DNA of 41,138 nucleotides from a phage, in NCBI GenBank assembly GCA_033178465.1, contig GCA_033178465.1_4726.2. One strand, given 5' to 3'. A model generated the notes under the pieces. It did not search any database. It was not told the origin of the DNA and worked only from the letters and a program-made list of their open reading frames with translations. Below are positions 935-30,445 of this stretch, piece by piece. A program made the translations under genes and the position numbers. Numbering within the stretch: position 1 is the stretch's first letter; each line of letters opens with the position of its first letter.

Positions 935-962
935 TCACGTAAGTAATATAGCCGTGAAAGGA
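935..962 (-). promoter_or_regulatory. putative phage early promoter (minus-strand TTTCACGGCTATATTACTTACGTG)
   Basis: One of three near-identical copies (935-962, 24208-24235, 30415-30445), each 50-70 nt upstream of a minus-strand start codon. The core TATATTAC resembles the AT-rich early promoter element I recall for phiKZ-like phages. Confidence 0.5.
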
Positions 963-1008
963 TTTGTGTTGGTCCGTTTCGATGTCCATCGTATTTTATG
1001 GATTGTCG

Positions 1009-1020
1009 AATGACGTCATT
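1009..1020. repeat. 12-bp palindrome AATGACGTCATT (copy 1 of 2 exact; a third TGACGTCATT at 37694)
   Basis: Exact 12-mer also at 30383-30394, both near early-promoter motifs; chance recurrence in 41 kb is unlikely. Confidence 0.4.
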
Positions 1021-1037
1021 TTAAGGGACATCCCCGG

Positions 1038-1072
1038 CCTCCTCCCCAGGAAAGGTGTGGGGAGGAGTTTTT
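1038..1072 (+). other. GC-rich stem-loop with T-tract (terminator-like hairpin in the 5' region of the helicase gene)
   Basis: CCTCCTCCCC (1038-1047) pairs with GGGGAGGAG (1059-1067), followed by TTTTT. Belongs to the CCCTCC/GGGAGG hairpin family. No plus-strand gene lies upstream, so its role (terminator, attenuator or RNA-stability element) is unclear. Confidence 0.35.
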
Positions 1073-1102
1073 ATCATACATTCTATTAAATCGAGCGCGA
1101 TT

Positions 1103-3184
1103 ATGTTGGATAGAATCAATCGTTTAATGAACCGAATAACGGTTAAAAATCAGAGTAACAACACCGTGCATATCGGGGGTATCGATGCCTGGCGTCTTTC
1201 AGATGACATTCAGCGAATATGGGGTACCTCCCGATTTATGAAACATATGTTTCGTAATTTCTCTTCTAGTGGACTCAGTCTCCACAACTTTTACCTTCCC
1301 GATTTCGTTTATATTCTCGAAACGATCATCGAAGCAAAGAATACCCGCAGTAATAAACGCATGCTGAAACACCTTATTGAGGTACTGCTGCAGGAAACCT
1401 GGTTGCAAAATACCACAATCGAGCAACCTGCAATCCTCGATAAAGCACGCATGAACAAAATGCTAACGCTCTCTTTGTTCGATTATCAAGATGAGTTTAT
1501 CGACATCTATAACCGTAACGTACCTAAATACCGACTGAAAGGATACGTGTGCGCAATGGGTGCCGGTGCGGGTAAAACAATCACCGCGTTGGCTTTAAGC
1601 GCCGCAATGAACGTCGATGTATTTGTGGTCTGCTGTCCTAAGAACACCATGCGTTCAGCATGGCAATCCGATGTAAACAAAGCCATCGTTGACCCCGCAA
1701 CAGAAACCGCATTCTGGTCAGATACAATGCCACCATCACAGCTGCAGAAAAGCGATAAGTATTATTTTCTGCATTACGAGTCGATGGGCTTATTAAACGA
1801 TGTAATGATCAAGCATAAACGCACAGCGAAGCGAGTTCTTATTGTTGTTGACGAAAGCCATAACTTCAACGACAAGAACAGCCAGCGTTCCCAACGATTG
1901 GTTGATCTCGTACAGACGATGCGTCAGACCATGAATGCGGACGTGCATGTCTTGTTTATGTCGGGTACGCCTGTTAAACAAATGGGTTCTGAGATGATCC
2001 CCTGTTTAGGTTGTATCGACCCGATGTTCCAAGGACAGGTGGTCGATAGCTTCAAAGCAATTTACGGTTTAACCAGCAGTCGTGCTAACGATATCCTCAG
2101 ACATCGTCTTGGGTTCATGATGCATGTTGTGCCTAAAGAGGCTTACCGTAAAACCCGGCCGGAAGTTCAGGATGTTTACGTGAAGCTCCCTAACGGTAGC
2201 GATTATACCATCTCAAGTATCCGCGACGACATGGCGATATTTGTACGCGATCGGGCGAAGTATTACAAGGATAACTGGGGGCATTACCGAAAGATTTTTG
2301 ATGACGCCTTGGACTACTATCGCAAGACTATTCGTACCGATGGTGAACGTAAAGAGCTATCTCGATACGAATCGATTGTTGCTCGTTTCCAGAAAGGTTA
2401 CGACCCCGTCAGAGACAAAGAAGATGCGATGTTCTGCAACACGTTTGAAAAACGAGCGATCATGCCGGTTCTTCCTTCTGATTTAAGGATTGCTTTCAAA
2501 GACGCCAAGAGCGTCATCAAGTACGTTGGGTTGAAAATTCAGGGTGAGGCGTTAGCGCGTGTTCTAGGCGCAGCCCGCATTCGGTGTCATGTCGACATGG
2601 TGGAGTACATCGACTTCGAAGGGTACATCAATAACGCTGAAGCCAAGGTGTTGATCTTCACGTCGTACGTTCAGGTGGTTGAGCGCGTCGACAACATGCT
2701 TCGTGATGCGGGTTTCTTACCTGAACCCATTTACGGGAAGACCAACAAGAACATCAACCAGATACTTGCTCGTCTACGCGACGATCCCGACAGCGGTCCC
2801 GCTATCGCAACATTTGATAGCTTAGCTGAAGGGGTTCCAATGCTGATGTGTAATGTGGGTCTTTTCCTGAACAACCCGTGGCGTTCGTCCGATGAAATCC
2901 AAGCCATCAGCCGTCTCGATCGTGTAGGGCAAACGCAGCCTGTTCGGATTTATCGTTTCATGTTGGATACAGGAAGCGAGGGTAACGTTTCTACACGTAG
3001 CCACGAAATCATGGAGTTAAGTCGACAGCTTGTTGAAGAAATCACGGGCGTCAAATACGTGGTGAACAAGCAAGACGACGTTAACTTGCAAGAAACGTTG
3101 GCGATGGAAGGATACGATCAATACGTTACCGTAAACACCACGGAATACGATATTAAACCACGACCTGCGTTCTTGGAATGGTGA
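1103..3184 (+). CDS. SF2 helicase (SNF2/DExH-like ATPase)
   Basis: Walker A CAMGAGAGKT, motif II VVDESHNF (DExH), SGTP motif III and a helicase C-terminal region. The ORF track starts at a GTG (1055) inside the upstream hairpin, so I take the first ATG at 1103; the start is uncertain. Confidence 0.65.
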   Translation: MLDRINRLMNRITVKNQSNNTVHIGGIDAWRLSDDIQRIWGTSRFMKHMFRNFSSSGLSLHNFYLPDFVYILETIIEAKNTRSNKRMLKHLIEVLLQETWLQNTTIEQPAILDKARMNKMLTLSLFDYQDEFIDIYNRNVPKYRLKGYVCAMGAGAGKTITALALSAAMNVDVFVVCCPKNTMRSAWQSDVNKAIVDPATETAFWSDTMPPSQLQKSDKYYFLHYESMGLLNDVMIKHKRTAKRVLIVVDESHNFNDKNSQRSQRLVDLVQTMRQTMNADVHVLFMSGTPVKQMGSEMIPCLGCIDPMFQGQVVDSFKAIYGLTSSRANDILRHRLGFMMHVVPKEAYRKTRPEVQDVYVKLPNGSDYTISSIRDDMAIFVRDRAKYYKDNWGHYRKIFDDALDYYRKTIRTDGERKELSRYESIVARFQKGYDPVRDKEDAMFCNTFEKRAIMPVLPSDLRIAFKDAKSVIKYVGLKIQGEALARVLGAARIRCHVDMVEYIDFEGYINNAEAKVLIFTSYVQVVERVDNMLRDAGFLPEPIYGKTNKNINQILARLRDDPDSGPAIATFDSLAEGVPMLMCNVGLFLNNPWRSSDEIQAISRLDRVGQTQPVRIYRFMLDTGSEGNVSTRSHEIMELSRQLVEEITGVKYVVNKQDDVNLQETLAMEGYDQYVTVNTTEYDIKPRPAFLEW

Positions 3185-3190
3185 TTAAGA

Positions 3191-3224
3191 AGCTCTGCCT
3201 GACATTAGGCAGAGCTTTATGCTG
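3191..3224 (+). terminator. rho-independent terminator
   Basis: Perfect 10-bp stem AGCTCTGCCT / AGGCAGAGCT with a 6-nt loop, followed by TTTAT, immediately after the helicase stop. Confidence 0.55.
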
Positions 3225-3283
3225 TATTTGTTGCAAGATCGTATGACGTATATGCGTTGTACTTCTTTAATAAGGCAGAATAA

Positions 3284-4735
3284 ATGAAACTTAAACAAAG
3301 CTGGAAAGACGAACTTCTCGCGTTAGTAAATAGCAAAAACAGTTTACAGCTGACATTAGCCGACGTAAAATTTGAGTTAACTGAACCGGTAAGCGAAGTG
3401 CCCGGAACGGTTGTTGTTACGATCAAACCGAACGATGATAGCCGTTACTTTAACGAGCAATCTCTGACCTACATTCGTCGAGACATCGCTAAAAACTTCA
3501 CCGGGATCCCGTTACGGGTTATCGTTAAAAATGATACCGCCGTAAGGGATATCATCAACACGATCGCTGAACGTTACGGATTGGTATTTGACACAACCGT
3601 CGACTTCCTCGAATCCGAGCTGAATAAACAAATTACGTTCGAAGACACCGGTATTAAAGACATTACGGTTCCGGTTGCAAACACGTCTTATGTTTGGGCT
3701 GGTAATCTTCAGTTCAATATCGCTAACGATACGTTGAGCTTGATTACGATCATCAAGCAAACCAATCTTACGAATCTGGTTTATCTGGATGGTGTTGAAG
3801 CTGACACATCGGGTTCGTTACTATTAGCAACAACCTCGGTTATCGGCGAAAACGGAAATGCCGAAACAACTGAAGGTGTCCTTGACGCCGCGTACTTCCA
3901 GAATATCCTGAACGTCATGGTTCGTTATGGTGATATTACCAACGAACAAATGCAACAAGCAATGCAGACAATTAACGGAAGCGAAGACGCTCGTAGAGTA
4001 GAGGTGCGGTCATACGGTGACGCCGAATTACTGGTAACCACCAAGAAAGATTGGGTTATCGGTAGCCTTAAGGGTGCTATGGTTGTTGGTCACGCTTCAC
4101 CTAAACCAATCCAATACGTTCTTAAAACAAAAGGCGGCACCATTATATTGTCATTAGATGGTTGGACAAATGTCAATATCGATTGGGGTGATGGGAATAA
4201 GACGACGCAGGACTCAGGCGATAATGAATATCAGCACAATTATGCGGACACTACAGAACGTACGATCGTCGCTACGGGTACCCCTACCAACGTTGAAGAT
4301 ACAGACGTACAGCAAAGCTTCACCGGTGGTAACATCACTGAAATCGTTGACTGGAACAACGGATTACCTAAGGCCCCATCATTACTTGCGGCGAACAGTT
4401 TAGTTAAGGTTCCCGATTATATCCCGGCATATTGGACGTCGTTAGAAAGTATGTTTACGCGATGCAGCGCTATTAACGACGTGAACATCACCAAATGGAA
4501 CACCCGCAACATTACTTCAATGAAGGACCTCTTCTACGGTTGCGCTACGTTCAACCAACCGATCGGTTCGTGGGATGTTTCGTCTGTTAAGAATGCAGAC
4601 AATATGTTGTCTGGGTGCTTCGCGTTCAATCAGGATCTGAGTGGTTGGACATTCCCGGCAGGCACTTCACACATCAACTACGACGCCATGACCGCCGCAT
4701 GGCAGGCTGGTTATAAACCACACTTCACCGAGTAA
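3284..4735 (+). CDS. hypothetical protein with C-terminal DUF285-like repeats (possible virion or host-recognition protein)
   Basis: 483-aa ORF. The C-terminus carries about 3 repeats of the pattern W-[DN]-x-S/T-x-V-x-x-M-x-x-x-F-x-x-C-x-x-FNQ (WNTRNITSMKDLFYGCATFNQPIGSWDVSSVKNADNMLSGCFAFNQDLSGW), which resembles the DUF285 (Mycoplasma-type) repeat. Terminators flank both sides. Confidence 0.55.
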   Translation: MKLKQSWKDELLALVNSKNSLQLTLADVKFELTEPVSEVPGTVVVTIKPNDDSRYFNEQSLTYIRRDIAKNFTGIPLRVIVKNDTAVRDIINTIAERYGLVFDTTVDFLESELNKQITFEDTGIKDITVPVANTSYVWAGNLQFNIANDTLSLITIIKQTNLTNLVYLDGVEADTSGSLLLATTSVIGENGNAETTEGVLDAAYFQNILNVMVRYGDITNEQMQQAMQTINGSEDARRVEVRSYGDAELLVTTKKDWVIGSLKGAMVVGHASPKPIQYVLKTKGGTIILSLDGWTNVNIDWGDGNKTTQDSGDNEYQHNYADTTERTIVATGTPTNVEDTDVQQSFTGGNITEIVDWNNGLPKAPSLLAANSLVKVPDYIPAYWTSLESMFTRCSAINDVNITKWNTRNITSMKDLFYGCATFNQPIGSWDVSSVKNADNMLSGCFAFNQDLSGWTFPAGTSHINYDAMTAAWQAGYKPHFTE

Positions 4736-4756
4736 AAAAAAAAATAGATAGCATAT

Positions 4757-4794
4757 CTTCCTCCCTACCCATAACGGGCGGGGAGGAGGGTTTA
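4757..4794. terminator. bidirectional terminator hairpin (CCTCCCTACCC ... GGGGAGGAGGG) between convergent genes
   Basis: Imperfect inverted repeat flanked by an A11 run on one side and TTTAT on the other, between the 3' ends of 3284..4735(+) and 4807..5145(-). Confidence 0.5.
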
Positions 4795-4806
4795 TGTCAA
4801 TTTAAT

Positions 4807-5145
4807 TTAGAACCAGAGTTCTTTCATGAAGTAGGCTTCCATATCGTAGATAAGCCACTCGTCAGGGATTTCTAAAGGATCGTCTTCGGTTAAGGTCAGC
4901 ATGTGCAGGGCGAACGCACGCTTAATATCGTTCAGCAGTTTCTCGTCGTCGTAACCTTCAGGTAGTTTACGGTCTACCAGCTGGGTTTGTTTATAGACAT
5001 CGCGGAATGCTTCAGGGCTGTGTTTGTCCATCGGAAATTGTTCAGCAGCCTGAACCATAGAAAGCGTCCAGCTTACAACATTGTAACGCTCACCGTTAAT
5101 TTCACTGAACTGATCATCGATTAAACAGATTTGTTGTACGTTCAT
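4807..5145 (-). CDS. hypothetical protein
   Basis: 112-aa ORF; its ATG overlaps the upstream gene's stop (ATGA); GGAG upstream. Confidence 0.55.
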   Translation of the reverse strand: MNVQQICLIDDQFSEINGERYNVVSWTLSMVQAAEQFPMDKHSPEAFRDVYKQTQLVDRKLPEGYDDEKLLNDIKRAFALHMLTLTEDDPLEIPDEWLIYDMEAYFMKELWF

Positions 5146-6035
5146 TCATTTTCTCCATTCTTATCTTGGTCGCAATCACACTCTTCGACGTCTTTCTTAC
5201 TTAAACGTAAGACACCGAGTGCGGCATGCTTGAGTTCTTGCAAAGCGCTTTTCAGCTGACCTTCTTCATCGAAATCAAAATACTTCTCGTTGTAGCTTAA
5301 CGCTGGAATCATATTTACGAGAGGTTCGATGGCGGGCATCAACATTTCAATGACGACCTTAGGATCAACAAAGCGTTCGAACCCTTCAGGAAGTTTGCTC
5401 ACTACAACCTTATCGTTTTTGATGTAGAATTTGTTCTTGAACAAATCGTCAAGAATAGCGTTCTCTTCATCCGTACGTTTTGCGTGAGGACGATCGATCA
5501 TCTGTACAAACACATCGCTCAACGCTTCAGGCAACGTCGGATTTTCACGAAGATAAGTTCCGGCCGGAATTTCAATATCGATCTTCGTCCACTCAACAAC
5601 CTGGTGGTCTCGCGTATAGATGACGTCAACTTCCCATGCCAGGCCATCAGCGCTTTCTACGGTGTAACGTGTTTTCGCTTGACCTTCCGGAGCCATGCGC
5701 TCAATGGCATCAAACATCTCGACTGGAATTTCTACCTCGCTTTCCGTTGCATCACCTGGGCCACGATATACCTTCGTGGTCATGATGTATTTCGGTTCTT
5801 CGTTATCGATCTGTATCGCACGTGCTCGTACTTGACCTTTCACACCACCAACGGCCGTGTTATCAAACAACCATTGATGTTGCACCATATGTTCGATTTT
5901 TGATGCGACTTGACGAAGACGTTCAACACCGTCTTCAGCCAGTTTACCAAAGAAGACCAGCTCACGTTCCTGCTGTGTCTCACCACTTAACATCATTAAA
6001 TTGGCGATTTGTTTCACGCCTCTTACTTGTGACAT
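5142..6035 (-). CDS. hypothetical protein (acidic C-terminus)
   Basis: 297-aa ORF; GGAG Shine-Dalgarno upstream of the ATG; translationally coupled to 4807..5145. Confidence 0.6.
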   Translation of the reverse strand: MSQVRGVKQIANLMMLSGETQQERELVFFGKLAEDGVERLRQVASKIEHMVQHQWLFDNTAVGGVKGQVRARAIQIDNEEPKYIMTTKVYRGPGDATESEVEIPVEMFDAIERMAPEGQAKTRYTVESADGLAWEVDVIYTRDHQVVEWTKIDIEIPAGTYLRENPTLPEALSDVFVQMIDRPHAKRTDEENAILDDLFKNKFYIKNDKVVVSKLPEGFERFVDPKVVIEMLMPAIEPLVNMIPALSYNEKYFDFDEEGQLKSALQELKHAALGVLRLSKKDVEECDCDQDKNGENE

Positions 6036-6103
6036 ACATGCTCCGGTTATAAGGGCCTACATCCAGACCCTTCATTGATTTTTGATGCAATCAAACGCTA
6101 TCG

Positions 6104-7678
6104 TTACAATTCAAAATCTTCATCGATAACGCGCTGGGTAAGCACTTTGTCGCTGAAGAACTCCACCTTGCGCTGATGGTATTTACGGTGCGCTTCGATA
6201 GATGTACATACCAGATACCAGAACGTTGGTGTCATTCCTTCAAACTTCCCTTTCAGCTGACGCAGTCGTCCCAACACCTGAATGTTGCCGGTTCGTGACC
6301 CCATCGCTAACGTCATGAACGTCATCACCAAGTCAGGAAGGTCGATACCGGTACCTGCCGATTTCACCGTCGTAACGCTAATATCGTTATCCAACAAGAC
6401 CATGAAATCTTCTTCAGCAGTATAAGGACCGATCTCTAACTCAGGAATACGTTCACTGAGGTAATGCGACAACGACTTACACATATCAACGGTTGCACAA
6501 TACACCAGCATCTTCATACCTTCCTGATACTGGTTCATGAAACCTTTGATGATAACCGTATAGATAAAGTTGAAATACGCGAGTTTGAGTTGCTTGTTCT
6601 TCATGATAGACTGTTCGAATATCGTGTGTGAATAAGCTCCACCAAACCCTTTGTATCTGACTTTATCTGTACTGCGTAGTCGGTACGTTACCGCATTTAC
6701 CGCAATGTATTTCTTGTATTCGCCTTTCGCATAACGGGCTTCTTTCGGATACATCAAATACAGCATCTGTTCGATAAACGGATCATCGGATACCGCTGTT
6801 GCCGACAGATAAATGATTTCCGGAATATTGGCGTAACACTTGACCTTAAACAAGAAATGCAATGCTTCGTGACACTCGTCATGAATCAGCAAACCTATGC
6901 CGGTCTTTTCCCAAAACTCAGCGGGATGGAAGGCATATGGCGCAACGCAGTTATTCTTCTCGTAGTCCGCAATATAACGTTGGAACATGTTCAAGGAGAA
7001 CAATGCGATTTTGAAGTCGAGTTCACCTTGTTCAACCAAGGTTTGAAACTCCAGCATGCTGTAACGAGGAATGTCGGGATGCGGTGGATCCTCCTTAGCG
7101 TTCCCACGTATTTCGATAACGTCCCCTGGTTCCATCCCGAAGAAGTTCAGTAGTGAGCTTCGCCAACCTGGCATGTATCTCGGCGACAGAATGATACCCG
7201 TCCGTACACCACGTCGGAAGGTAATCTCCTGCGACATGGCCGTTTTACCAGACCCTGTTTGAGCGGTGTTTAGGCTCATTCTGAAGGGGGTATCCTTACC
7301 CCCGTCCATGTACTCCAACCATTCTTGCTGATCTTGACGCCATGGAAACTTCCATTTCTTTACGAACTCCACTTCCTTACCTGGAACCGGATCATGGTAA
7401 ACGATTTCCAACCACTCTTTTCGTATCCCTCGGGAAAAGATAAAATCCAAAAACGATTTCAACTGTTCACGGAGTAAGTATACCTCGCTATAATCGCTTC
7501 TTGCCGCGGCATACGTGTTTATGGTATCGGTAACCATTCTCCGTGTACGAGGGTCACGCCGTTTCCTCAGATGCAAACAACGGTCTCGAAGGTAATGGCC
7601 TATCAAATGGGCAAATCGAAGTCCGTATCCGCTCAGCCTCATGCCATGCGAGAAGACGTCGATACGAGCTAACTTCAT
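6104..7678 (-). CDS. SF2 helicase (DExH-box ATPase)
   Basis: Motif I TGSGKT, motif II DECHE, motif III SAT, motif V-like TVKSAGTGIDLPD, motif VI-like GRLRQ. Start overlaps the stop of 7675..9681 (ATGA). Confidence 0.65.
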   Translation of the reverse strand: MKLARIDVFSHGMRLSGYGLRFAHLIGHYLRDRCLHLRKRRDPRTRRMVTDTINTYAAARSDYSEVYLLREQLKSFLDFIFSRGIRKEWLEIVYHDPVPGKEVEFVKKWKFPWRQDQQEWLEYMDGGKDTPFRMSLNTAQTGSGKTAMSQEITFRRGVRTGIILSPRYMPGWRSSLLNFFGMEPGDVIEIRGNAKEDPPHPDIPRYSMLEFQTLVEQGELDFKIALFSLNMFQRYIADYEKNNCVAPYAFHPAEFWEKTGIGLLIHDECHEALHFLFKVKCYANIPEIIYLSATAVSDDPFIEQMLYLMYPKEARYAKGEYKKYIAVNAVTYRLRSTDKVRYKGFGGAYSHTIFEQSIMKNKQLKLAYFNFIYTVIIKGFMNQYQEGMKMLVYCATVDMCKSLSHYLSERIPELEIGPYTAEEDFMVLLDNDISVTTVKSAGTGIDLPDLVMTFMTLAMGSRTGNIQVLGRLRQLKGKFEGMTPTFWYLVCTSIEAHRKYHQRKVEFFSDKVLTQRVIDEDFEL

Positions 7679-9681
7679 AACGTGATTACATCCTCCGGTT
7701 TAGGTTCTTTACGCGGTAGAAGCATGTAGTCGATCGGATGATCCGGCTTCATGGTTGGGATATAACTGTTCGGGTTTTGGAACGCATCCAGTTGCTCTTG
7801 GTGAGCGAACTTCATACTCAAGGAGCGCATGTTCATATTCTTCTTGAAGGTACTGAAGTATCGTGTTGTTCCCTGTTTCGGCATGCGATAATCTTTCGTG
7901 TGTGGCGAACGAATCATGCTGGCATAGAGAATAACATCGAGATGCGAAAGGTTCATTCGCAGACGCTGGGCACACAGACGATGCCAATAGTACAACACGT
8001 TTGCAACTTCTTCCGGCGTTGCTTCGTCTTCCGAAAGGAATCCGGCACTGAAAGAACCTTTCCCGAATTTGAACTCACGTTCGATTTCTTTTGCGTATTC
8101 CATCATGTTTTTGTGGATTAACGGCATCTGGAATAACGTACGTGAATTGTCCCAATGTTTCAAGTCGAAAATCACAATCCCGTCAGACGTCACTTCCCAG
8201 CTATGGCGTTTAAGATAACGGATAAACGCTTTACTCGGGACAACAGGACGACCGCAGAAATCGAAATTGACTTTAAGCTTACGATAGCTTTCATCTTTCC
8301 TGTCGTAAATCTCCATATCACAAAGCGTCATGTTAAACAGACGTTGCGGTATCAGCGAACTGATTTCTTCCGCTTCCGCTACGTCGTACAACATGTTCGC
8401 AAGACCTAACTTCATCTTAATCAACACGTGTTTACCTTTCAGCTCACGTGCGAGTTTGATGTCGTTCATGTTCTGGCTGTAGCGAAGGATATGTTGATAT
8501 TCCGGTGGGATTGGTGCTGTGGATACCGTTGACGAACCATCGTGGTGTTTGGTAGAAAGAATGTTCTGCGTTACCTGTTGCGAACAGGTACGCGCTGCAC
8601 CGTCGCCGACATTATCAGTCAGTGCGAAGTTATGACTTAATTCACCGTAACATGTCGTACAGACCCCAGCAGGATCGGGATGATGACAATAGTTAACGGA
8701 GCGCATGCGTACCGTCGTACCAATCAATTCTTTCATGTGTGGTTGTATCGCTACCAACGAACCGTCATCACGAATAATGAATCGACCGTGGAAGCCACGC
8801 AGGTCGGTCTCATCACGGATAGGCATCGGGATGGTCTCTTTACTACCACAATCACCAGGATGGAGTCGTTGTACAACCGCTGTCGCTATCTGAAGTTCAC
8901 GACCGAAATATTCAGACTTTTTAATCTGCTCTTTGTTGAACAGCAACGATTTCGCCGCAGAACGACTTTCTTTCAAGCTGTCGGGAAGAGAGATCAAACC
9001 AGCTGCGTATGACCGCATTACTGGATCACGGAATATCTCGGAGTTAATATCAGTCAAGAATCCACGCATCCCAATACACTGTAGCACCTGCCCAATCGAA
9101 ACGTGTTCGGTTCTTACCGCACGTGCAATAGGGTTTGCATGTAGCGTTTTATCGGTGCTCAGTACCTTCGTCAGTTTCTTGTATGCGCTTTCAATGCCTT
9201 CGCGGGTGGGTTCCGCTTCGGCGATGATTTTCTTAACTTCGGGGTGTACGGTAATCTGATAAAAATCATCCGCGCAAATCGTTGTTACGTATTCCTCCAA
9301 CGCATACGTAAAGAAGTTATATACATTGTTAAACATATCGAACAATGCTTTCCAGAGAACCTCACGATTCTCTTGTGGATAAGCATACATGCATTGACGA
9401 TACGCTGCGCTTTGCAACGCAACCGATGAACCCGCTGTGAACTTGCGTTTATCGACCAGGTTCTCTTTTGTCAATGGTGTCTCAGGATACATGCGATGCA
9501 CAGACCAGTGCATGTAACTAAAGAAAATGCGTCGCGCACGTAATTCATGAACACCATCGTCCATCTCGATATATACACGGTCATTAGGCTGTGCCCATTC
9601 GAACACCTCATCAACCGGCCAGTGCATAAGCTCGCGTGCCCTCACACGACGTTTCGTGGTGGTTGTCTGTGTTGTAATCAT
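7675..9681 (-). CDS. multisubunit RNA polymerase beta' subunit, C-terminal fragment (trigger-loop region)
   Basis: 668 aa. The segment CHHPDPAGVCTTCYGEL...GDGAARTCSQQVTQNILSTKHH parallels E. coli beta' CDTDFGVCAHCYGRDL...[21 protein letters not shown] (recalled from memory). Confidence 0.5.
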   Translation of the reverse strand: MITTQTTTTKRRVRARELMHWPVDEVFEWAQPNDRVYIEMDDGVHELRARRIFFSYMHWSVHRMYPETPLTKENLVDKRKFTAGSSVALQSAAYRQCMYAYPQENREVLWKALFDMFNNVYNFFTYALEEYVTTICADDFYQITVHPEVKKIIAEAEPTREGIESAYKKLTKVLSTDKTLHANPIARAVRTEHVSIGQVLQCIGMRGFLTDINSEIFRDPVMRSYAAGLISLPDSLKESRSAAKSLLFNKEQIKKSEYFGRELQIATAVVQRLHPGDCGSKETIPMPIRDETDLRGFHGRFIIRDDGSLVAIQPHMKELIGTTVRMRSVNYCHHPDPAGVCTTCYGELSHNFALTDNVGDGAARTCSQQVTQNILSTKHHDGSSTVSTAPIPPEYQHILRYSQNMNDIKLARELKGKHVLIKMKLGLANMLYDVAEAEEISSLIPQRLFNMTLCDMEIYDRKDESYRKLKVNFDFCGRPVVPSKAFIRYLKRHSWEVTSDGIVIFDLKHWDNSRTLFQMPLIHKNMMEYAKEIEREFKFGKGSFSAGFLSEDEATPEEVANVLYYWHRLCAQRLRMNLSHLDVILYASMIRSPHTKDYRMPKQGTTRYFSTFKKNMNMRSLSMKFAHQEQLDAFQNPNSYIPTMKPDHPIDYMLLPRKEPKPEDVITL

Positions 9682-10456: not shown

Positions 10457-10469
10457 CTATTCGTGTTTA

Positions 10470-23075: not shown

Positions 23076-23088
23076 GAGGAACTCCTCT

Positions 23089-23538
23089 TTAAGCGTAATT
23101 CATTCCAACCAATCTATCGTAGTTAGGCATATGCCCTAACTCCAGTTCGACGGGCATGGATACATTGGTGCGTGGTGCGTAAAATGTTCGCGTATGCATA
23201 TCGATATACCCACAGTCCAAATAAACAATATCGGACAACTCCGCTGGATGTTTAGGTGCGGGAATCTTTAAGCGATTGTAACACTCAAGCTGCCACCAGG
23301 CATGAAAAAAGTTATTGTAGGCGTACGATTTACTGTTGGCAACTTTAAGTCCGTAGATCACCCATAACGCCGCCATGAAGTTGGTCGCATTAACTCGCAT
23401 CGGTTGTTCATTATTGAGCATGTACGTGTAGGTAAACAACGGTGTGTTACCATCACCGAAACGTCCGACTAAGGTGTTGTTCGTGTGTTCGACCTCAAAG
23501 GAAAAATGCTGGCTGCTATTGCCATCAAAATGGATCAT
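23089..23538 (-). CDS. hypothetical protein
   Basis: 149-aa ORF in the minus-strand gene array. Confidence 0.5.
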   Translation of the reverse strand: MIHFDGNSSQHFSFEVEHTNNTLVGRFGDGNTPLFTYTYMLNNEQPMRVNATNFMAALWVIYGLKVANSKSYAYNNFFHAWWQLECYNRLKIPAPKHPAELSDIVYLDCGYIDMHTRTFYAPRTNVSMPVELELGHMPNYDRLVGMNYA

Positions 23539-23611
23539 TCCGTTCTCCTCAAGCTTTTCATTTCATAGAGTGGTGGAAATTCGTAGAAAGTTACAAAAAT
23601 AAAAAAGAATG

Positions 23612-23645
23612 GGCAGCCCCTCCCCACCCGAAGGTAGGGAGAGAC
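23612..23645 (-). terminator. terminator hairpin with UUCG-type loop (minus-strand TCTCCCTACC-TTCG-GGTGGGGAGGGG, then U-rich tract)
   Basis: Inverted repeat directly after the 23657..24142 stop, followed on the minus strand by CATTCTTTTTTATTTTTG. Confidence 0.55.
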
Positions 23646-23656
23646 CGCAAATATAC

Positions 23657-24142
23657 TTAAACCAAAGCTGCGATAACGTCGTTAACATTACGGCCTCGCA
23701 ACTCTGCCGCTAAACGAATAACTTCATCCAGGGAACGGTTTGTACGAATCTTGGCCACTTTCCAATTTTCAGGATACTGTTCGAAGTTAAGCAACCAAGT
23801 CATTACCTTTGCTTGTTCCATACCGTTGAGTTTGATTGTCGTGCGCGGATTGGCTTTGAACCACTTCTTGCTCAGCTGCGCCATACGGCGAACAGGGTAA
23901 GCGTAAGCGCGAGTCCAGTCTTTGGACAGATTGTCGAGTAATTCACAGTAGCTGCTGTCGTAGTCTTTGTTGATACGACGTAATAACCAGTTGGCGGTCA
24001 TCTGATAAAGTTTATCATCTTCACGTAACCGCATACCCGCTACTGCTAAATAAATGATAAGACCTGCGCCCAGGATGAGAGACAGGATAAACAGAATTTG
24101 GGTTTCTTGTGCTAAAGTCATTTTACTATCCTCGGATTTCAT
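23657..24142 (-). CDS. hypothetical membrane protein (early gene)
   Basis: 161-aa ORF with a hydrophobic N-terminal helix (ILFILSLILGAGLIIYLAVAG); early-promoter motif about 70 nt upstream. Confidence 0.55.
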   Translation of the reverse strand: MKSEDSKMTLAQETQILFILSLILGAGLIIYLAVAGMRLREDDKLYQMTANWLLRRINKDYDSSYCELLDNLSKDWTRAYAYPVRRMAQLSKKWFKANPRTTIKLNGMEQAKVMTWLLNFEQYPENWKVAKIRTNRSLDEVIRLAAELRGRNVNDVIAALV

Positions 24143-24207
24143 TAGGATTTAATTTCCAATATAAGAGCAATGTGATATGCCTTATACAGTCGATTGATGT
24201 TGTACAT

Positions 24208-24235
24208 CACCTAAGTAATATAGCCGTGAAAAATG
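24208..24235 (-). promoter_or_regulatory. putative phage early promoter (minus-strand TTTTCACGGCTATATTACTTAGGTG)
   Basis: Second copy of the conserved motif, upstream of 23657..24142. Confidence 0.5.
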
Positions 24236-24240
24236 TTGGA

Positions 24241-25038
24241 TTAACGTGTTCTCCTATCACGATGCGTATACGACTGAAGACCGATGTCCATATGTGGTAA
24301 CGTCAGCGTCTGCCAGATCTGTCGTGCGTAACGATCGAGCGTATGATCGTCAGTAACACAATCGACGGGTTCGATGAGGTGAGTCGTATACTGGCTTTTC
24401 TCAGAGAAAGGTTCGATGTTAGCTGTATCTCCTAATCCGCTTTTCACCGTGAAGACAAGACGTGTGACTATCATCGCCCTATGTTGCTGTTCGTTATAAC
24501 GAAGGCTGCGGTATACGGCATAGCTTCCTCCTTTTAGGCTTCGGGTATAACGAAGGTCGGAGGTCGTCTCGGAAATCTGATACAACATCCAATCCAACGT
24601 ATCACGCCAGTACGCATCATCCACATCAGGAACTGTAATACCATACCGCGTAGGCAGCAGTTCTAAAAGCAATTTATAAAGTCCGCGACGCAGACCATGC
24701 TCTTCTGTTTCCGATAAACCGTTTCCAACGTAACGTGAAATACGTGTACGTAAATACGTACGGATGAACATATTCGCCATCAGTGTTTTCACTCTGCTAC
24801 TGGTATCCTCAAAGCGATCAACGCTGAAACTCGTTTCAATCAGCCGTCCATTAAAATACAATGCGGCAACATACATCGCGTTATTACTATCACGTTCAAT
24901 GTTTAAACGACCGCAGATATTAGCCGCGTCGTTCATGGTAAATTCTAATTTATCGTGTTCGATACGATAGATAATATCCTCCTGGGTTGCTAGGCTCGCA
25001 ATACGACGATAGCCCGGAGAAGTACGTTTTACACTCAT
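24241..25038 (-). CDS. hypothetical protein
   Basis: ORF 24241..25077; start taken at the ATG at 25038 (MSVKRTSPGY...) with GAGGA upstream. Confidence 0.5.
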   Translation of the reverse strand: MSVKRTSPGYRRIASLATQEDIIYRIEHDKLEFTMNDAANICGRLNIERDSNNAMYVAALYFNGRLIETSFSVDRFEDTSSRVKTLMANMFIRTYLRTRISRYVGNGLSETEEHGLRRGLYKLLLELLPTRYGITVPDVDDAYWRDTLDWMLYQISETTSDLRYTRSLKGGSYAVYRSLRYNEQQHRAMIVTRLVFTVKSGLGDTANIEPFSEKSQYTTHLIEPVDCVTDDHTLDRYARQIWQTLTLPHMDIGLQSYTHRDRRTR

Positions 25039-25080
25039 GATTGTCCTCGTTTTCAATTTTAAGATTGCATGCGGCATAAA

Positions 25081-25105
25081 CCCTCCCCGCCTTATGCAGG
25101 GAGGG
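25081..25105 (-). terminator. terminator hairpin (CCCTCCC ... GGGAGGG)
   Basis: Inverted repeat after the 25121..25759 stop, followed on the minus strand by TTTATGCC. Confidence 0.5.
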
Positions 25106-25120
25106 TAGCCATTAAATGGA

Positions 25121-25759
25121 TTAACCTAATTTACCACCGGCGATGTTGGTGAAATCTTCGCCATCAGGAACTTGCAGTAGGATACGTGCCATGTCCCAGT
25201 TGGTTAATGTAATTGCTTTATCATCGATACTCAGTTCTGGTAGGTCGAGTTCATGATCGTCAAACTCGTAGGAAATACTCCACGTTTCGTCTGTTTTAGG
25301 ATCGGTTATCAACACACCGTCTGTTACACGCATGTAGTCCGGATGCAATTCATTACTGAATGTGCTGAACGGATCGGTGTAACATTCAGCATATCCCTCG
25401 ATTTGCTGACGCTGTGCCTTCGTACGTAATTCAGGGCACGCCATGATCAGTTGTCGAGATATGCCGTTTGCAGCTCGGAAATCCTCCACGGTGTTACATG
25501 GCATAACCACATCGTCATGGAAGATGTTCTCCGATTGTCTCAACAGCGTCTTACGGAGTTCAGCATAGTTTATCTGATTGAATGCGTCGAACGTTGCTAA
25601 CGATTCAGCGTAAAAATGCTTTACGTGTTCGCTTGCGCCGCCGAGGCTATTCATCAGCTTGTGGCCGTACTCCATAAAGCTTTTATCGAGACCGGAGGAC
25701 ATTTCTCCGAACCTCAGTGCACGATAACTGTCTCGTCCACCTGTAAATATTTGCGCCAT
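25121..25759 (-). CDS. hypothetical protein
   Basis: 212-aa ORF with a strong AAAGGAGGA Shine-Dalgarno. Confidence 0.6.
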   Translation of the reverse strand: MAQIFTGGRDSYRALRFGEMSSGLDKSFMEYGHKLMNSLGGASEHVKHFYAESLATFDAFNQINYAELRKTLLRQSENIFHDDVVMPCNTVEDFRAANGISRQLIMACPELRTKAQRQQIEGYAECYTDPFSTFSNELHPDYMRVTDGVLITDPKTDETWSISYEFDDHELDLPELSIDDKAITLTNWDMARILLQVPDGEDFTNIAGGKLG

Positions 25760-25774
25760 TACAGGCGTCCTCCT

Positions 25775-26008
25775 TTAGCAATGGTTGTTAGTTGCTTCTA
25801 TTTCGTCAAGATACGGTTCTACGTCATCGCCCTCCACGAATTCGTTGAACCAACAGTCAATGGTAGAAATAACCGGCGACTGGTGTTCACATTTCTTAGA
25901 TACCTTAAAAGGTACGTTATTATCCATCATACCGAGTTCGGGTCGAAAACGCCCGAAATGTTTCGCAGTCCAAATGTCTGGGACGATATGGTTGTTCATC
26001 GTAGTGTT
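25775..26008 (-). CDS. RNA polymerase beta' N-terminal subunit, proposed terminal exon (exon 4)
   Basis: In-frame translation NTTMNNHIVPD...ELGMMDNNVPF parallels E. coli beta' (DGD)QMAVHVP...ARALMMSTNNILSP, the region just after the catalytic motif. Begins right after a CTG that follows a conserved hairpin (26012-26037). The ORF track lists this as a 79-aa ORF 25775..26014. Confidence 0.5.
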   Translation of the reverse strand, partial: NTTMNNHIVPDIWTAKHFGRFRPELGMMDNNVPFKVSKKCEHQSPVISTIDCWFNEFVEGDDVEPYLDEIEATNNHC

Positions 26009-26357
26009 CAGCATGAGTCGCTACCTCATACCCGCAGCTTTACCTGCAGCTTCCGGTGTTACCGGAATGTCCAGAATACATCTTATCCATATTCCAAATG
26101 GAACGTAGGACTTCCGCGCTGGATCTCGCTTGAGACCACGTATTCGTTGAACGTTCTCCTGAACGGAGCTTCGCTGCTGATCGAACATTGTTACGTACGG
26201 TAGGCGTCCCCGAAGGGATTGTCATTGAAGCCGCGTACATCCGCTACCTTGTTTCTACCTTATCGGTTCCTCTTACGAGGCGTAGCGGCCTTAGCCCTTC
26301 CCAGCAATTCACGGAATCCAAGCTCTTCCTTTCGGAAGACAGGGCCTATGATTAAGC
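26009..26357 (-). ncRNA. group I intron-like element C (ORF-less), approximate boundaries
   Basis: Minus-strand core elements in canonical order: P-like GAATTGCTGGGAAGGG (26315-26300), Q-like GATCAGCAGCG (about 26183-26171), R-like GTTCAACGAATACG (about 26143-26130), S-like TAAGATGTATTC (about 26090-26077), then a 3' hairpin with GTAGCGA loop and CTG before the exon. Confidence 0.5.
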
Positions 26358-26367
26358 GTCACCGTCG
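26358..26367 (-). CDS. proposed 10-nt micro-exon (C GAC GGT GAC) supplying the DGD of NADFDGD
   Basis: Lies between S element of intron B and P element of intron C; preceded by ...AACAG (candidate terminal G). It is the only placement found that restores the catalytic aspartate triad in frame. Inference only. Confidence 0.35.
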
Positions 26368-26743
26368 CTGTTATCGACTATATCTTCATCCTCGTTGCGA
26401 GGAGTCTCCCGTTTTGGTCTGTGTTTAACAGAACCTACTCTACTCGACATCGCGTCTTTCGATAGTCTGTGAGCATACATCTTAACGAACATTCGTGGAT
26501 TCCTAAACAGGTGAATGTTCTTGTTGAGATGCTTCGCTGCGGATTATTCCCGTCCTACCTCTTTTACCATACCCAGTTCATTACGCTGGCCCTCATCTGT
26601 GTCACCACGATGAGTTGGTGTGTAGTCCGATTACAGAAACTTCCCGTCAATTAGAGAGTTTTAACTACGTTCCTGTTACCAGAAACCAGATCCCGACGGT
26701 ATCAATAAATCAACGTAAGTTATTGATTTAATTGAAAAAACTG
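26368..26743 (-). ncRNA. group I intron-like element B (ORF-less), approximate boundaries
   Basis: Minus-strand P-like AATTGACGGGAA (about 26657-26641), P5-like GGGTATGGTAAAAG, Q exact AATCCGCAGC (26544-26535), R-like GCTCACAGACTATC (about 26478-26461), S-like GAAGATATAGTCG (26387-26375). The 3' tail after S is unusually short (7 nt), so the junction is uncertain. Confidence 0.5.
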
Positions 26744-26765
26744 AAATCTGCATTATCTAAATCTT
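26744..26765 (-). CDS. proposed 22-nt micro-exon (AA GAT TTA GAT AAT GCA GAT TT) supplying ...DLDNADF
   Basis: In-frame N-A-D-F codons at 26754..26744, immediately after the intron A 3' hairpin plus CTG and immediately before intron B. Inference only; the exon may start at 26762 instead. Confidence 0.4.
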
Positions 26766-27140
26766 CAGTATGGTTCGCTACACCATACCCGCACATACGT
26801 GCAGCTTACGTCTTTCACGTAAGAAGAGACTATATCTTTCACCCTCAGCATTATCTGGTCGGGGCCCCCATTTCGGCGGTCAGATGACCGGTGGTTTCCC
26901 ACGCCGCTTGGCCCTAACGCCCGTAAGCGATAGTCGTTGAGCACATCTCCGTTCTGGAGACTTCGCTGCGGATTCCCCAATCCTTGCCGCTTTTACCATA
27001 CCTGAATGATTAGTTCAGCCCCACACTCTGTTCCCAGGCGTGGTTGGTGGACAAGGCTCTAAGTAGGTTCCCGCATTAGGGAGTTCCTCGTAACAACATT
27101 TCTGCGTTACTGGGCCTAACGACCCTTTCAAGATCATCAC
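26766..27140 (-). ncRNA. group I intron-like element A (ORF-less), approximate boundaries (5' splice site estimated 27130-27146)
   Basis: Minus-strand P-like TAATGCGGGAAC (27080-27069), P5-like CAGGTATGGTAAAAG, Q exact AATCCGCAGC (26974-26965), R-like CTCAACGACTATCG (26941-26928), S-like AAAGATATAGTCTC (26839-26826), and a 3' hairpin GGTATGGT-GTAGCGA-ACCATAC (26795-26770). Confidence 0.55.
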
Positions 27141-28364
27141 GCTTAACCCGATGGTATTATCCTGCGGATCGCGTTTAACCTTGGTGATTTCAAGACATTG
27201 GTTACTGCTTCGGTCAAGTGATGGGTTTCGAACAAAACCACACACAATCCCATCGAACGGTGTATCAGCAATAAGCTCATCGTGCAGCTCACTCATCATC
27301 GGATGATAATTACGGACATGTTCCGCAACGAACGCACGTGCAGCTCTTGGTGAATAACCACGATGGAATAACTTGGATTGGATATGTTCTTTATTGGTTA
27401 AAGTAAATGGCGCGTATGGGAAATGCAGATGATAATAACGATGGTTCGCTGTTATCGAACTGATTACGGTACGCGTGGTGAATGGATGTAATGTACCTAA
27501 TATGTTTTTACGTGTAATACCTTTCTTCTTACCGATGAACTCATCGAAAATCGCCGCGTGGTATTGCAGCAGCTTCAATTGCACTTTCGCCATCCAGTTT
27601 TCTTTCTTTCTGGCGCTCAAAGGTGTTGTTGGGTGATAGATACTATTCAACGTACCGATAGCATCGATCGCACCTTCCATTTTGCTATCCGCATAACGAC
27701 CGGTTGGCGTATTCTCGATAACGAACATCATGGCCGCAGGAAAGCTGATATACTGACTGAAGAACTTATCACGATGGATACGGATGAATTCTCGTAGCGT
27801 GTCAACTTTCTCCGTGTTCTTCGGTCCACGTAACGTCGGTCCTTTATACAAGATCTCCATGATGCGATCGAAGTTCTGTATAAAGCTATTTACACCACGA
27901 CGTATCCCGAATACATCGAATTGCTGCTCCAGATAGTTCTTGAGTTCGATGGGTCGTTTTACATTTGGACGGTAACTGGCATCAATGAGCCACGTCATCG
28001 TTTCAAAGCTTTTGATATTCAACTCGCTTGCCAGCACGAGATGGACCAACGGGTTAATGAACGCATCGATTCCTTCAGGAACGCGCGCCCAAACAGTCGA
28101 ACGAATCTCTTGTTCTGCTGGGTAGGTTACAACCGTTTTACAGTTTGGACACACCGTGCCGAGTAGCTCACCACGATTGTAGAAACCACAACCACATTGT
28201 GGTGTGATATCCAACGTATCGCTGGAGTAAACACGGGTGATAAAACTGTTTAATTTCTTCTTCTCTTCGACGACTTTTGTATCGTAATCATTCAACAAAA
28301 TCGGCGTAAAAGGAAGTTCTGCGAGCTGTCTATCGAAACTCACGATATCGAGCATGATGGCCAT
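27015..28364 (-). CDS. RNA polymerase beta' N-terminal subunit, exon 1 (ORF as listed; true 3' end probably about 27130-27146)
   Basis: Zinc-ribbon [20 protein letters not shown] matches the beta' N-terminal Cx(2)C...Cx2C; [26 protein letters not shown] parallels [35 protein letters not shown] parallels NRAPTLHRLGIQ. The ORF then runs into intron-like sequence and stops without NADFDGD. Confidence 0.6.
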   Translation of the reverse strand: [449 protein letters not shown]

Positions 28365-28406
28365 GGGGTATCTCCTACAAATGAAAAAGAACGTTAGGAC
28401 GTATAA

Positions 28407-28430
28407 GGGAGGGAGGTTGCCCTCCCTCCC
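28407..28430 (-). terminator. terminator hairpin (GGGAGGGAGG-TTGC-CCTCCCTCCC)
   Basis: Perfect 10-bp inverted repeat 27 nt downstream of the chimallin-like gene stop, with a U-rich tract downstream on the minus strand. Confidence 0.55.
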
Positions 28431-28456
28431 GTCAGATTACATCGAACGTTCTTCCA

Positions 28457-30352
28457 TTAGAACAGGTTGAATGCCCCACCCATGTTGTTAACGCCAACAT
28501 TCGGACGATCGCTACGTGCGTAGATGTTACCGGAGATGTTACCCAGACCACGAGCACGTGCTGCCATGTTACCACGAACAGCGGTACCTGCCAGATGCTG
28601 GATGTTCTCAGGACGGATGGTGAAGCCAGCGTCAGCAGCGGCTTCGATCAGCGCCTGCAGTGCTAACGGATCGAAGTCGTAACGCATTGCCCAGCCGGTT
28701 TGTTCCCAGCTACCAGACAGAACACGATCAATGATTTCGTGACGAGCGACAACACGCTGAGACATCGTCATATCGGTACGGTCGAAGCTGTCTTCCCAAG
28801 CTTCTACGGTATCCGGGTTAGTGATGTTCATCATGTACAGATCGTCCATATCACGAATATCGTGACGGTGGCCATCCTGGTGGTTGTAGTGACCCAGCGG
28901 GATACGGTTACCGGTAGCGTAGACCAGCGGTAAGCCGTACTGATATTTCTTGCTGAAGCAGCCCAGGGTAGTATCATCGAAGGCACGGTAGAGTGCTTTG
29001 TAACCTTCGGAGATTTCACGGACTTCGCCTTCAACTTTACCCGTATAGATCTTCTCAGCCGCCGGGATCATACGCAGCAGCCAGCTGTATTCGCCTTCTT
29101 CCGGTACGTCGATAGAAATCAGCAGAGACGGATACAGTACCTGTTGCAGGAACTTGTAAATCTGCTCGTTGGTTTGAGTAGACAGATCCAGCGGTGCGGT
29201 AACTTCCGGATCCAGTACCATTGCCAGAGCACCCGGGTTATGCGGACCGATGCCACGAGCAGCGTTGCTGATTAAAGACTGTGCCCACGCCATACCGCTG
29301 TTCAGCGTAGCGATGGTACCAATCAGACCCAACACGAAAGTGTTCGGTGTGAACGCATCCAGCTCCAGCGGGTAAGCACTGGTCATCACGTAACGCGGCT
29401 GGTATTGTACAGTCGGCGGTACCGGATAACCGTTAACCAGAACAGGGCCTTGGTTGAAGGTCGGGTTCTGCGGGCTGTAGGTCAGGTCAATGTAACCGGT
29501 GGTGGCGACCAGACGCTGTTGACTATCGTAATCGCTCATCGCTTGACGGATGCGGTTAGAGATAGTTACAGTGATGTCAGAACGCACAGGGTTACCAACA
29601 ATATCGCTGTCCTGCATACCGCTGGTGTTGTACTGAACGCTGCTGATTGGCTGATCGCTTGCCATCATGCCCAGGTTGAACTGCGGCAGACCCAGTTTAT
29701 CACCGAGACGGATTTCGATCGCGGTTTGGATTGCGTTATCTGCAGCAGACAGCAGGGTGGTTGCCAGATGCGCAGATTCAGCGGTGATTTCATTGGTCAC
29801 CACAGCCAGACCAGCGATACGAGCAGTACCATTAGACTTACCGCCAATAGCTGCATACATTGCCGCCATGACTTCGTTGATGAACGTACCGTTCAGGTTA
29901 TCAACCCAGGTACGCGGTACCAGAATGTTACCGTGCGGACCTTGTTCTTCACGACGCGGCAGCGGAGCCAAACCGGCAACCAGCGGAAGCACATAACCGA
30001 AGAAGTGGTTATGGTCACCAACTTTTGCACCACTCATAACGACCAGGGTCGGATACGGTACACTGTACTGGTTAGGATCGACGGTCACCATGATGAAGTC
30101 GTCTTTGAATCCTTTATCTTCCAGTTCTTTCTCCATCAGACGACGGAGATTCAGTACCTGCTCGGAGCCAGTATTACGGCTAATACGACGGCTCAGTGTA
30201 CGGTTGATCGTACGCATCGTATGAGTTACTTTAGGCTGGCCAGCAAAATCTGCAGCGGTTTCCAGCGCCTCATCAGCACGTTGTGCGGTGCGGGTTTCAG
30301 CTGCACGAATTTCTACATTATCGTTACCGTTATTACGTACGTCTAAGCCCAT
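28457..30352 (-). CDS. chmA: putative chimallin (phage-nucleus shell protein), alternatively another major early protein
   Basis: 631-aa ORF with AGAGGA Shine-Dalgarno, driven by an early-promoter motif and ended by a strong terminator. It sits immediately upstream of the beta' N-terminal gene, matching the gp54-gp55 arrangement I recall for phiKZ; the length matches known chimallins (~630-700 aa); both termini look disordered. No motif-level confirmation is possible by eye. Confidence 0.5.
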   Translation of the reverse strand: MGLDVRNNGNDNVEIRAAETRTAQRADEALETAADFAGQPKVTHTMRTINRTLSRRISRNTGSEQVLNLRRLMEKELEDKGFKDDFIMVTVDPNQYSVPYPTLVVMSGAKVGDHNHFFGYVLPLVAGLAPLPRREEQGPHGNILVPRTWVDNLNGTFINEVMAAMYAAIGGKSNGTARIAGLAVVTNEITAESAHLATTLLSAADNAIQTAIEIRLGDKLGLPQFNLGMMASDQPISSVQYNTSGMQDSDIVGNPVRSDITVTISNRIRQAMSDYDSQQRLVATTGYIDLTYSPQNPTFNQGPVLVNGYPVPPTVQYQPRYVMTSAYPLELDAFTPNTFVLGLIGTIATLNSGMAWAQSLISNAARGIGPHNPGALAMVLDPEVTAPLDLSTQTNEQIYKFLQQVLYPSLLISIDVPEEGEYSWLLRMIPAAEKIYTGKVEGEVREISEGYKALYRAFDDTTLGCFSKKYQYGLPLVYATGNRIPLGHYNHQDGHRHDIRDMDDLYMMNITNPDTVEAWEDSFDRTDMTMSQRVVARHEIIDRVLSGSWEQTGWAMRYDFDPLALQALIEAAADAGFTIRPENIQHLAGTAVRGNMAARARGLGNISGNIYARSDRPNVGVNNMGGAFNLF

Positions 30353-30382
30353 TTGGGATTCCTCTTTTCTTAAACTTTATTA

Positions 30383-30394
30383 AATGACGTCATT
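30383..30394. repeat. 12-bp palindrome AATGACGTCATT (copy 2)
   Basis: Exact repeat of 1009-1020, located between the early promoter and the chimallin-like start codon. Confidence 0.4.
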
Positions 30395-30414
30395 GAATCA
30401 GCTTCTACTCGCTC

Positions 30415-30445
30415 ATTCACCTAGGTAATATAACCCTGAAATTTT
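30415..30445 (-). promoter_or_regulatory. putative phage early promoter (minus-strand TTTCAGGGTTATATTACCTAGGTG)
   Basis: Third copy of the conserved motif, about 70 nt upstream of the chimallin-like start. Confidence 0.5.

Follow-up and report, generated by a model that had tools for sequence, protein, structure and literature searches.

Probable early promoters of the virion RNA polymerase upstream of chimallin and other early genes in a Goslar-like phage

A stretch of phage DNA of 41,138 nucleotides (contig GCA_033178465.1_4726.2 of GenBank assembly GCA_033178465.1, hereafter the window) carries on its minus strand near-identical copies of a short motif, each located shortly upstream of a gene, and one of these genes encodes chimallin, the nuclear shell protein. 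The question raised by this locus is what the copies are for. An original prediction made from the sequence took them for early promoters, and we reach the same answer with a probability of about 0.88: the window's four strong copies are early promoters for the virion's RNA polymerase (vRNAP), belonging to a set of 13 in Escherichia phage vB_EcoM_Goslar. Goslar is a nucleus-forming jumbo phage of E. coli from the family Chimalliviridae, and it has two multisubunit RNA polymerases, the vRNAP, which comes packaged inside the virion, and a non-virion enzyme (nvRNAP), which is produced after infection. The window (G+C content of 44-52%) is collinear with and 96.7-98.4% identical to approximately positions 141851-183682 of the Goslar record (NC_048170), and the complete annotated Goslar genome (237 kb) served as the context for a genome-wide scan.

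Direct reading and a pattern search located the 25-nt motif at 935-959, 24207-24231 and 30417-30441 on the minus strand, within 1-4 nt of the positions first proposed. The three copies share the pattern TTTCA[CG]GG[CT]TATATTAC[CT]TA[CG]GTGA, which had no match in 100 dinucleotide-preserving shuffles, even when 3 mismatches were allowed. As had been stated, the genes behind them encode an HD-domain protein, a small membrane protein of 154 aa and chimallin, and the motif lies 41 nt, 65 nt (86 nt to the better-supported start) and 65 nt away from them, respectively. The count of three was too low, since a fourth strong copy, ATTCACGCTTATATTACCTTTGTGG, had been overlooked at 18932-18956, with its TATATTAC core at 18940-18947.

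A matrix scan of the Goslar genome returned 12 sites at 31-42 bits, the next match being at 14 bits, and a core-only matrix brought in CTACATTACCTTCCTGA, upstream of gp225, as the thirteenth. Each of the 13 is located on the minus strand, ahead of the next gene and in the same orientation. Twelve are intergenic, while intergenic DNA makes up only 7% of a sampled 42.5 kb. The remaining site (49717-49741) is inside gp047, an annotated open reading frame (ORF) of 62 codons (49584-49772 in the Goslar record), which is probably mis-annotated. The predicted promoter start falls downstream of the ATG of gp047, and this ORF has approximately 7-fold fewer reads than gp046.

When the 13 sites were aligned on a conserved G, taken as +1, information content exceeded background only from about -35 to +2 (approximately 37 bp), with both flanks at background. 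The conserved element as a whole is longer than the ~25 bp originally given. The bases A-34, A-29, T-14, A-13, A-11, T-10, T-9, A-8, C-7, T-5, T-1 and G+1 are invariant in 13/13 sites. The box TA[T/C]ATTAC is present without exception in the 13 Goslar sites and in the four window sites, and the upstream signature of the Goslar sites consists of TTT at -23 to -21 together with the invariant A-29 and A-34. Such sharp edges at -35 and +2 point to selection on a discrete element of ~37 bp, and not to duplication of larger segments. Upstream of the box the element comes in two flavours, one being ATTGAAAAAAA (found at chmA, the chimallin gene, and at gp214, gp200 and gp040) and the other TTAAYNCA...TTTCACG.

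The original prediction had taken TATATTAC for the core of phiKZ early promoters, and it indeed matches the published phiKZ "consensus early promoter", tatattaaaaaaaatttaagatgTATATTACaaatgtg (PMC12676376 Table S1). Of all 38-mers in the window, the chimallin copy fits this consensus best, sharing 29 of 38 positions in an ungapped comparison. The first 50 kb of phiKZ contain seven copies of TATATTAC, every one of them intergenic, on the coding strand and with N5-TG behind it; the opposite strand has none. One copy is upstream of the chimallin gene PHIKZ054, for which a primary transcription start site (TSS) with the early motif was mapped (Wicke et al., PMC8244752). The phiKZ early motif was described as an extended -10 box with a T-rich element upstream of -19 (Wicke et al., PMC8244752), and the window sites have this same anatomy if the conserved G is +1. 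The chimallin promoters read aatgaaaaaaatttgagattTATATTACtaaattGaat in phiKZ and attgaaaaaaatttcagggtTATATTACctaggtGaat in the window. Both phages have promoters of this kind ahead of chimallin and other early genes, intergenic and on the coding strand, with an identical TATATTAC-N5-TG core, a T-tract near -21 and an A-rich stretch near -30. Moreover, each phage has two upstream subclasses, and chimallin takes the A-tract type in both. The Goslar type differs from that of phiKZ in tolerating TACATTAC, in its added fixed bases (C-20, A-19, G-17, C-15 and C/T-6 T-5 A-4), in the non-A-tract subclass (TTAAYNCA...TTTCACG as opposed to ATTCAAAC...TTTAAACAG in phiKZ), in the number of sites (13 versus the 28-32 reported in phiKZ) and in having E. 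coli as host.

Published RNA sequencing (RNA-seq) of Goslar gives independent access to the same question; all expression figures presented here are from Goslar itself, not from the window phage. Knockdown of chimallin translation arrests the Goslar genome in the early-infection vesicle with the injected vRNAP, which sits in that vesicle, and the transcriptome of the knockdown equals the wild-type transcriptome of 5-20 min (Armbruster et al., bioRxiv 10.1101/2023.09.20.558163). At the vesicle stage only the vRNAP can reach the DNA, and the knockdown leaves only vRNAP transcription. We used the log2 ratio of knockdown to control for each gene at 30 min (Supplementary Table 2 of Armbruster et al., replicate A), by which genes fall into two classes, one near 0 to +1.3 (nucleus-independent) and the other at -3 to -8 (nucleus-dependent).

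The knockdown-insensitive genes form nine contiguous blocks, and in all nine the first transcribed gene is directly downstream of a motif site, in support of the early-promoter reading. Ratios of -3 to -7 were found for the genes that adjoin the block starts, whichever strand these genes are on. The starts, with the neighbouring gene in parentheses, are gp004 at +1.26 (gp005, -7.3), gp021 at +1.20 (gp022, -5.4), gp040 at +0.94 (gp041, -4.0), gp047/046 at +0.84 and +1.19 (gp048, -3.3), gp075 at +1.05 (gp076, -4.5), gp159 at +1.11 (gp160, -5.1), gp225 at +1.12 (gp224, -5.5), gp214 at +1.04 (gp213, -3.3) and gp200 at +0.49 (gp199, -3.4). The motif sites thus coincide with the 5' boundaries of chimallin-independent transcription. 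No obvious difference in strength was seen between the two upstream subclasses, the read density of the first gene being 0.5-1.5 reads per nt in both in knockdown cells.

The other four sites (upstream of gp105, gp175, gp182 and chmA), three of which have their counterparts in the window, are internal to blocks and stand at upward steps. Within the 29-kb gp159 operon the ratio falls off gradually, reaching +0.19 at gp106, and is back to +1.08 at gp105. It rises from -1.09 at gp244 to +0.95 at chmA, where read density in the knockdown increases approximately 7-fold over gp244, and from -0.43 at gp176 to +0.93 at gp175, staying near +1 through gp170. The value for gp182, +1.32, is the highest of its region and drops to -1.3 at gp181, past a terminator (window 23613-23648). 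As for the polymerases themselves, for which the annotation of the Goslar-type genome shows several beta/beta' fragments, the virion genes gp196 (used as vRNAP subunit marker by Armbruster et al.), gp205 and gp207 belong to the dependent (late) class, and the nvRNAP genes gp165, gp171 and gp247 belong, together with chmA, to the independent (early) class. This arrangement fits the phiKZ paradigm.

The copies could instead be promoters of the nvRNAP, of the middle or late class, or dual promoters with early and middle activity. Indeed, the phiKZ chimallin gene has a middle secondary TSS beside its early primary one, the middle motif containing TACT (PMC8244752); some of the Goslar-type copies read TATATTACTTA, and control cells show late expression, too, of genes behind several motif sites. 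Nevertheless, we consider this quite improbable, as the genes downstream of the motif stay at full level in the chimallin knockdown, in which nucleus-dependent genes fall 8- to 100-fold, and as the sequence is that of the phiKZ early consensus, not of its middle (A-rich with TACT at -22) or late (TATG) motifs.

It is likewise very unlikely that the motif acts in the RNA leader, or as the operator of a dimeric regulator recognising TCAC...GTGA, with the real promoter located further upstream. Upstream of -35 there is nothing conserved to act as such a promoter, and the homologous box of phiKZ and of the Bacillus phage AR9 is at about -10 when counted from the mapped starts. An inverted repeat, TCAC/GTGA, is indeed formed by positions 3-6 and 22-25 of the 25-mer, and the Armbruster et al. 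legend discussed below can be taken to put the chmA TSS at -91, immediately 5' of the motif. However, the repeat is not maintained: changes at S6 and S21 are not compensated, and the left arm is missing from the sites of gp225, gp200 and gp214. Folding predictions for the motif gave z from -0.9 to +0.2, none of them significant, and a different structure at each site. A hairpin or dyad reading of TCAC...GTGA was thus rejected for lack of covariation and of a significant fold.

That host RNA polymerase reads these sites as sigma-70 promoters right after injection is extremely unlikely, despite the resemblance of TATATT to TATAAT at 5/6 positions. Recognition by sigma-70 does not involve the invariant C-7, T-5 and T-1/G+1. 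A sigma-70 scan called none of the four window sites, and no -35 element occurs at 16-18 nt spacing at the motif sites, so this candidate was discarded. In addition, related phages are transcribed independently of the host polymerase, and the DNA, once injected, is shut in a vesicle together with the vRNAP (Armbruster et al.). As a separate observation, sigma-70-like matches in the window are fewer than in shuffled sequence, 20 versus 32.4 +/- 6.4 in 1-20000 and 24 versus 34.2 +/- 6.8 in 20001-40000, which could reflect avoidance of host-polymerase promoters. Finally, non-functional dispersed repeats, from duplication or as remnants of small mobile elements, have a practically negligible probability: several copies (gp004, gp182, gp105 and gp159) are nearly identical over ~37 nt, but similarity ends abruptly at -35 and +2, the 13 copies all precede a co-oriented gene (12 of them in intergenic DNA) and coincide with expression boundaries, and the same element has been kept in phages whose chimallins share no more than 29% identity.

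If the copies are vRNAP promoters, as we favour, the vRNAP would enter the early-infection vesicle together with the injected DNA and would recognise, with no need for new protein synthesis, a double-stranded element of ~37 bp. This element would comprise TA[T/C]ATTAC at -14 to -7, T-5, and T-1/G+1/A+2 at the start point, with TTT.A.G ahead of these at -23 to -17 and, from -35 to -25, a block that either is A-rich or reads TTAAY. The first transcribed base would be the G located seven bases past the box, and the spacing from box to conserved G in the Goslar sites equals that of the AR9 and phiKZ consensus sequences. The recognising enzyme, the bases contacted and the exact start nucleotide are what we infer from these comparisons. 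Four units of the window would be served in this way: the HD hydrolase operon, the gp175-gp170 operon, a one-gene membrane-protein unit, and chimallin with the adjacent nvRNAP beta' gene.

Several points weigh against this reading. The ratio also returns to about +1.09 at gp183 and gp236, with no motif in the corresponding upstream regions of the window (~25078-25120 and ~38020-38075), and a search for weaker copies upstream of these two genes gave none above background, even at low stringency. A second promoter class or differences in RNA stability may lie behind these steps. Thirteen promoters for ~145 early genes imply very long operons. The RNA-seq data come from Goslar, a relative 97-98% identical to the window phage, and the Goslar start at the conserved G is placed by analogy. 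Conservation between the window and Goslar goes in the right direction (1 difference in 148 promoter positions, or 0.7%, versus 2.4% in other intergenic DNA) but is not significant in this underpowered comparison (P = 0.12). The legend of Extended Data Fig. 4 gives the first nucleotide of the chmA "TSS sequence" as 91 nt upstream of the ATG (Armbruster et al.), which corresponds to window position 30443, 25 nt upstream of the predicted chmA start. Taken literally, this ambiguous statement would put the motif inside the transcript. The legend gives the same 91-nt figure for the next gene, where the position is two bases past the stop codon of chmA, and for this reason we tentatively read it as the start of a displayed stretch.

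In the window, the putative chimallin promoter (30417-30453, minus strand) spans -35 to +2 and is of the A-tract subclass (ATTGAAAAAAATTT...TATATTAC). By analogy with mapped promoters, transcription is predicted to start at the G at 30418, giving a leader of 66 nt. The chimallin gene (28457-30352, minus strand; Pfam PF25677, E = 1.7e-25), whose product is 99% identical to Goslar gp246, is the first of its unit. The leader would have exactly 66 nt in both the window (30353-30418) and phiKZ (45582-45647), and 63 nt in phage RAY; the leader sequences have little in common past the first GAAT, and the equal length may be a coincidence.

The early promoter of the gp182-like gene (24207-24243, minus strand) scored 27.4 bits with the core-only matrix and has a predicted start at the G at 24208. 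The gene itself (23657-24121, minus strand; 154 aa, one N-terminal hydrophobic helix) has a GAGGA ribosome-binding site at its start at 24121. It is followed directly by a strong intrinsic terminator (23613-23648, minus strand) with a 16-bp stem, 10 G-C pairs and a T-rich tail, which closes a one-gene early unit.

The copy overlooked at first corresponds to the early promoter of the gp175-like gene (18932-18968, minus strand; 19.5 bits), with a start predicted at the G at 18933 and a leader of 51 nt. It heads the unit from gp175 to gp170, within which lies the nvRNAP subunit gene gp171. The gp175-like gene (17296-18882, minus strand) begins with the ATG at 18882, preceded by an AAGAGG ribosome-binding site, in agreement with the Goslar annotation. 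The longer ORF with a GTG start at 19017, given by a mechanical ORF call, would run across the promoter at 18932-18968.

At the HD-domain phosphohydrolase gene (208-894, minus strand; Pfam HD, E = 3e-8), the early promoter at 935-971 on the minus strand was found by both pattern search and matrix scan. Its predicted start, the G at 936, would give a leader of 42 nt, and in Goslar this promoter heads the ~29-kb early unit from gp159 to gp106. The original prediction also listed a "weaker variant" at 9781-9805, upstream of a beta' C-terminal/helicase operon, and here we could not follow it. Its best register is 9769-9793 on the minus strand, upstream of the gp165-like nvRNAP beta gene, at 14.1-14.9 bits, a score inside the range of Markov-shuffled genomes (10-20 bits) and therefore not significant on sequence alone. 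In the Goslar knockdown the ratio at gp165 goes up only slightly, from +0.07 to +0.50. This candidate may be either a degenerate promoter or a chance match.

Early promoters of other phages resemble these to different extents. In AR9 the early consensus AAATATATATTAT-(6N)-G was mapped by differential RNA-seq (dRNA-seq) and is used independently of chloramphenicol. It shares with the Goslar type a ATATATTA(T/C) box near -10, a distance of exactly 6 nt to the G start and a virion-packaged multisubunit polymerase. AR9 is, however, not a chimallivirus, has uracil-containing DNA, and differs in the last base of the box (T, not C) and in the upstream elements. The early promoters of 201phi2-1, identified by Oxford Nanopore (ONT) cappable sequencing (ONT-cappable-seq), have an AT-rich motif ~10 bp upstream of the TSS and conserved -10, -20 and -30 regions, a three-block anatomy like that of the Goslar-type element when compared by description. 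Unlike the Goslar set, only six of them were detected experimentally, all ahead of hypothetical genes. The virion polymerase of phage N4 has the same life-cycle role, as an injected enzyme that transcribes the first genes, but it has a single subunit, and what it recognises is a DNA hairpin whose stem is 5-7 bp long and whose loop has 3 nt. No such hairpin is found at the four window sites (fold z from -0.86 to +0.16, with no common structure).

Upstream of chimallin, the TATATTAC box followed by TG is present in RAY, Eowyn and RSL2, and TATATCAC takes its place in PhiPA3 and Noxifer; Goslar chimallin is at most 29% identical to the chimallin of the phages compared. Three Goslar-like genomes are represented in IMG/VR, and among them the whole region upstream of chimallin is 99% identical, so that footprinting between these close relatives carries no information. 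A motif search of IMG/VR returned the Goslar-like contigs and two unrelated contigs. In the latter a 19-mer lies inside coding sequence, and we treated them as chance matches. No account of Goslar promoters turned up in the literature open to search: the words "promoter" and "motif" are absent from the Goslar RNA-seq paper (Armbruster et al.), and a full-text search for the literal string TATATTAC gave unrelated papers only. According to a review from 2020, every jumbo phage encoding RNA polymerases has such a motif that bioinformatics can detect, and it turned out to be the early promoter wherever it was tested.

The predicted chimallin leader contains a further element. Only two copies of the perfect palindrome AATGACGTCATT exist in the complete Goslar genome (0.02 expected), both with counterparts in the window. 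One, at 30383-30394, falls within the predicted chimallin leader, at +25 to +36; the second, at 1009-1020, is in a divergent intergenic region, 73-84 nt upstream of the predicted HD-gene start. Perfect palindromes of 14 nt were also found in the predicted chimallin leaders of phiKZ (TTCTTGATCAAGAA, +29), PhiPA3 (TACTTGATCAAGTA, +28) and RAY (ACATTAGCTAATGT, +20), and none comparable in those of Eowyn, RSL2 and Noxifer. The other 12 Goslar and six phiKZ early leaders have no palindrome of at least 10 nt, and approximately 2% of random Goslar 66-mers have one of at least 12 nt. The leader palindrome might serve as an operator specific to chimallin, as an RNA hairpin or as a second promoter region. 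With 12-14 nt at +20 to +29 in four genera, it could be a control element specific to the shell protein, and no description of it was found in the literature consulted.

These promoters are a new example of a type known from phiKZ; they extend the phiKZ paradigm to another genus and leave current understanding unchanged. The set should be useful for annotation and engineering, although it will not surprise a specialist. With 13 instances covering every early transcription block, the 37-bp promoter gives an operon map of the first minutes of infection in Goslar, the E. coli model for nucleus-forming phages. It is also a compact cassette from which markers or anti-defence genes might be expressed from the injected genome in E. 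coli, and its invariant bases form a set for testing how a multisubunit polymerase with no sigma factor finds its promoters. The TATAT[T/C]AC-N5-TG box is found across phages of E. coli, Pseudomonas, Erwinia, Klebsiella and Ralstonia, and the A-tract chimallin subclass in E. coli and Pseudomonas phages. A bolder reading, which we regard as tentative and rather doubtful, is that the virion-polymerase promoter has been nearly frozen across the Chimalliviridae; a related one takes the leader palindrome for a control element of the shell protein. With a frozen promoter, one genus could exchange its virion polymerase and early promoters for those of another, early genes would be cross-activated in co-infections, and one portable early-expression cassette would serve the whole family.

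The nvRNAP beta' gene next to chimallin shows a difference from Goslar. A group I intron (Rfam RF00028, 50.7 bits) adjoins this gene at 26352-26734 on the minus strand. The window does not have the 1,065-bp stretch of Goslar (168217-169281) that carries an ORF for an HNH homing endonuclease, and has in its place 367 bp (26757-27123) with no Goslar counterpart. The nvRNAP beta' ORF has 449 aa in the window versus 424 aa in Goslar.

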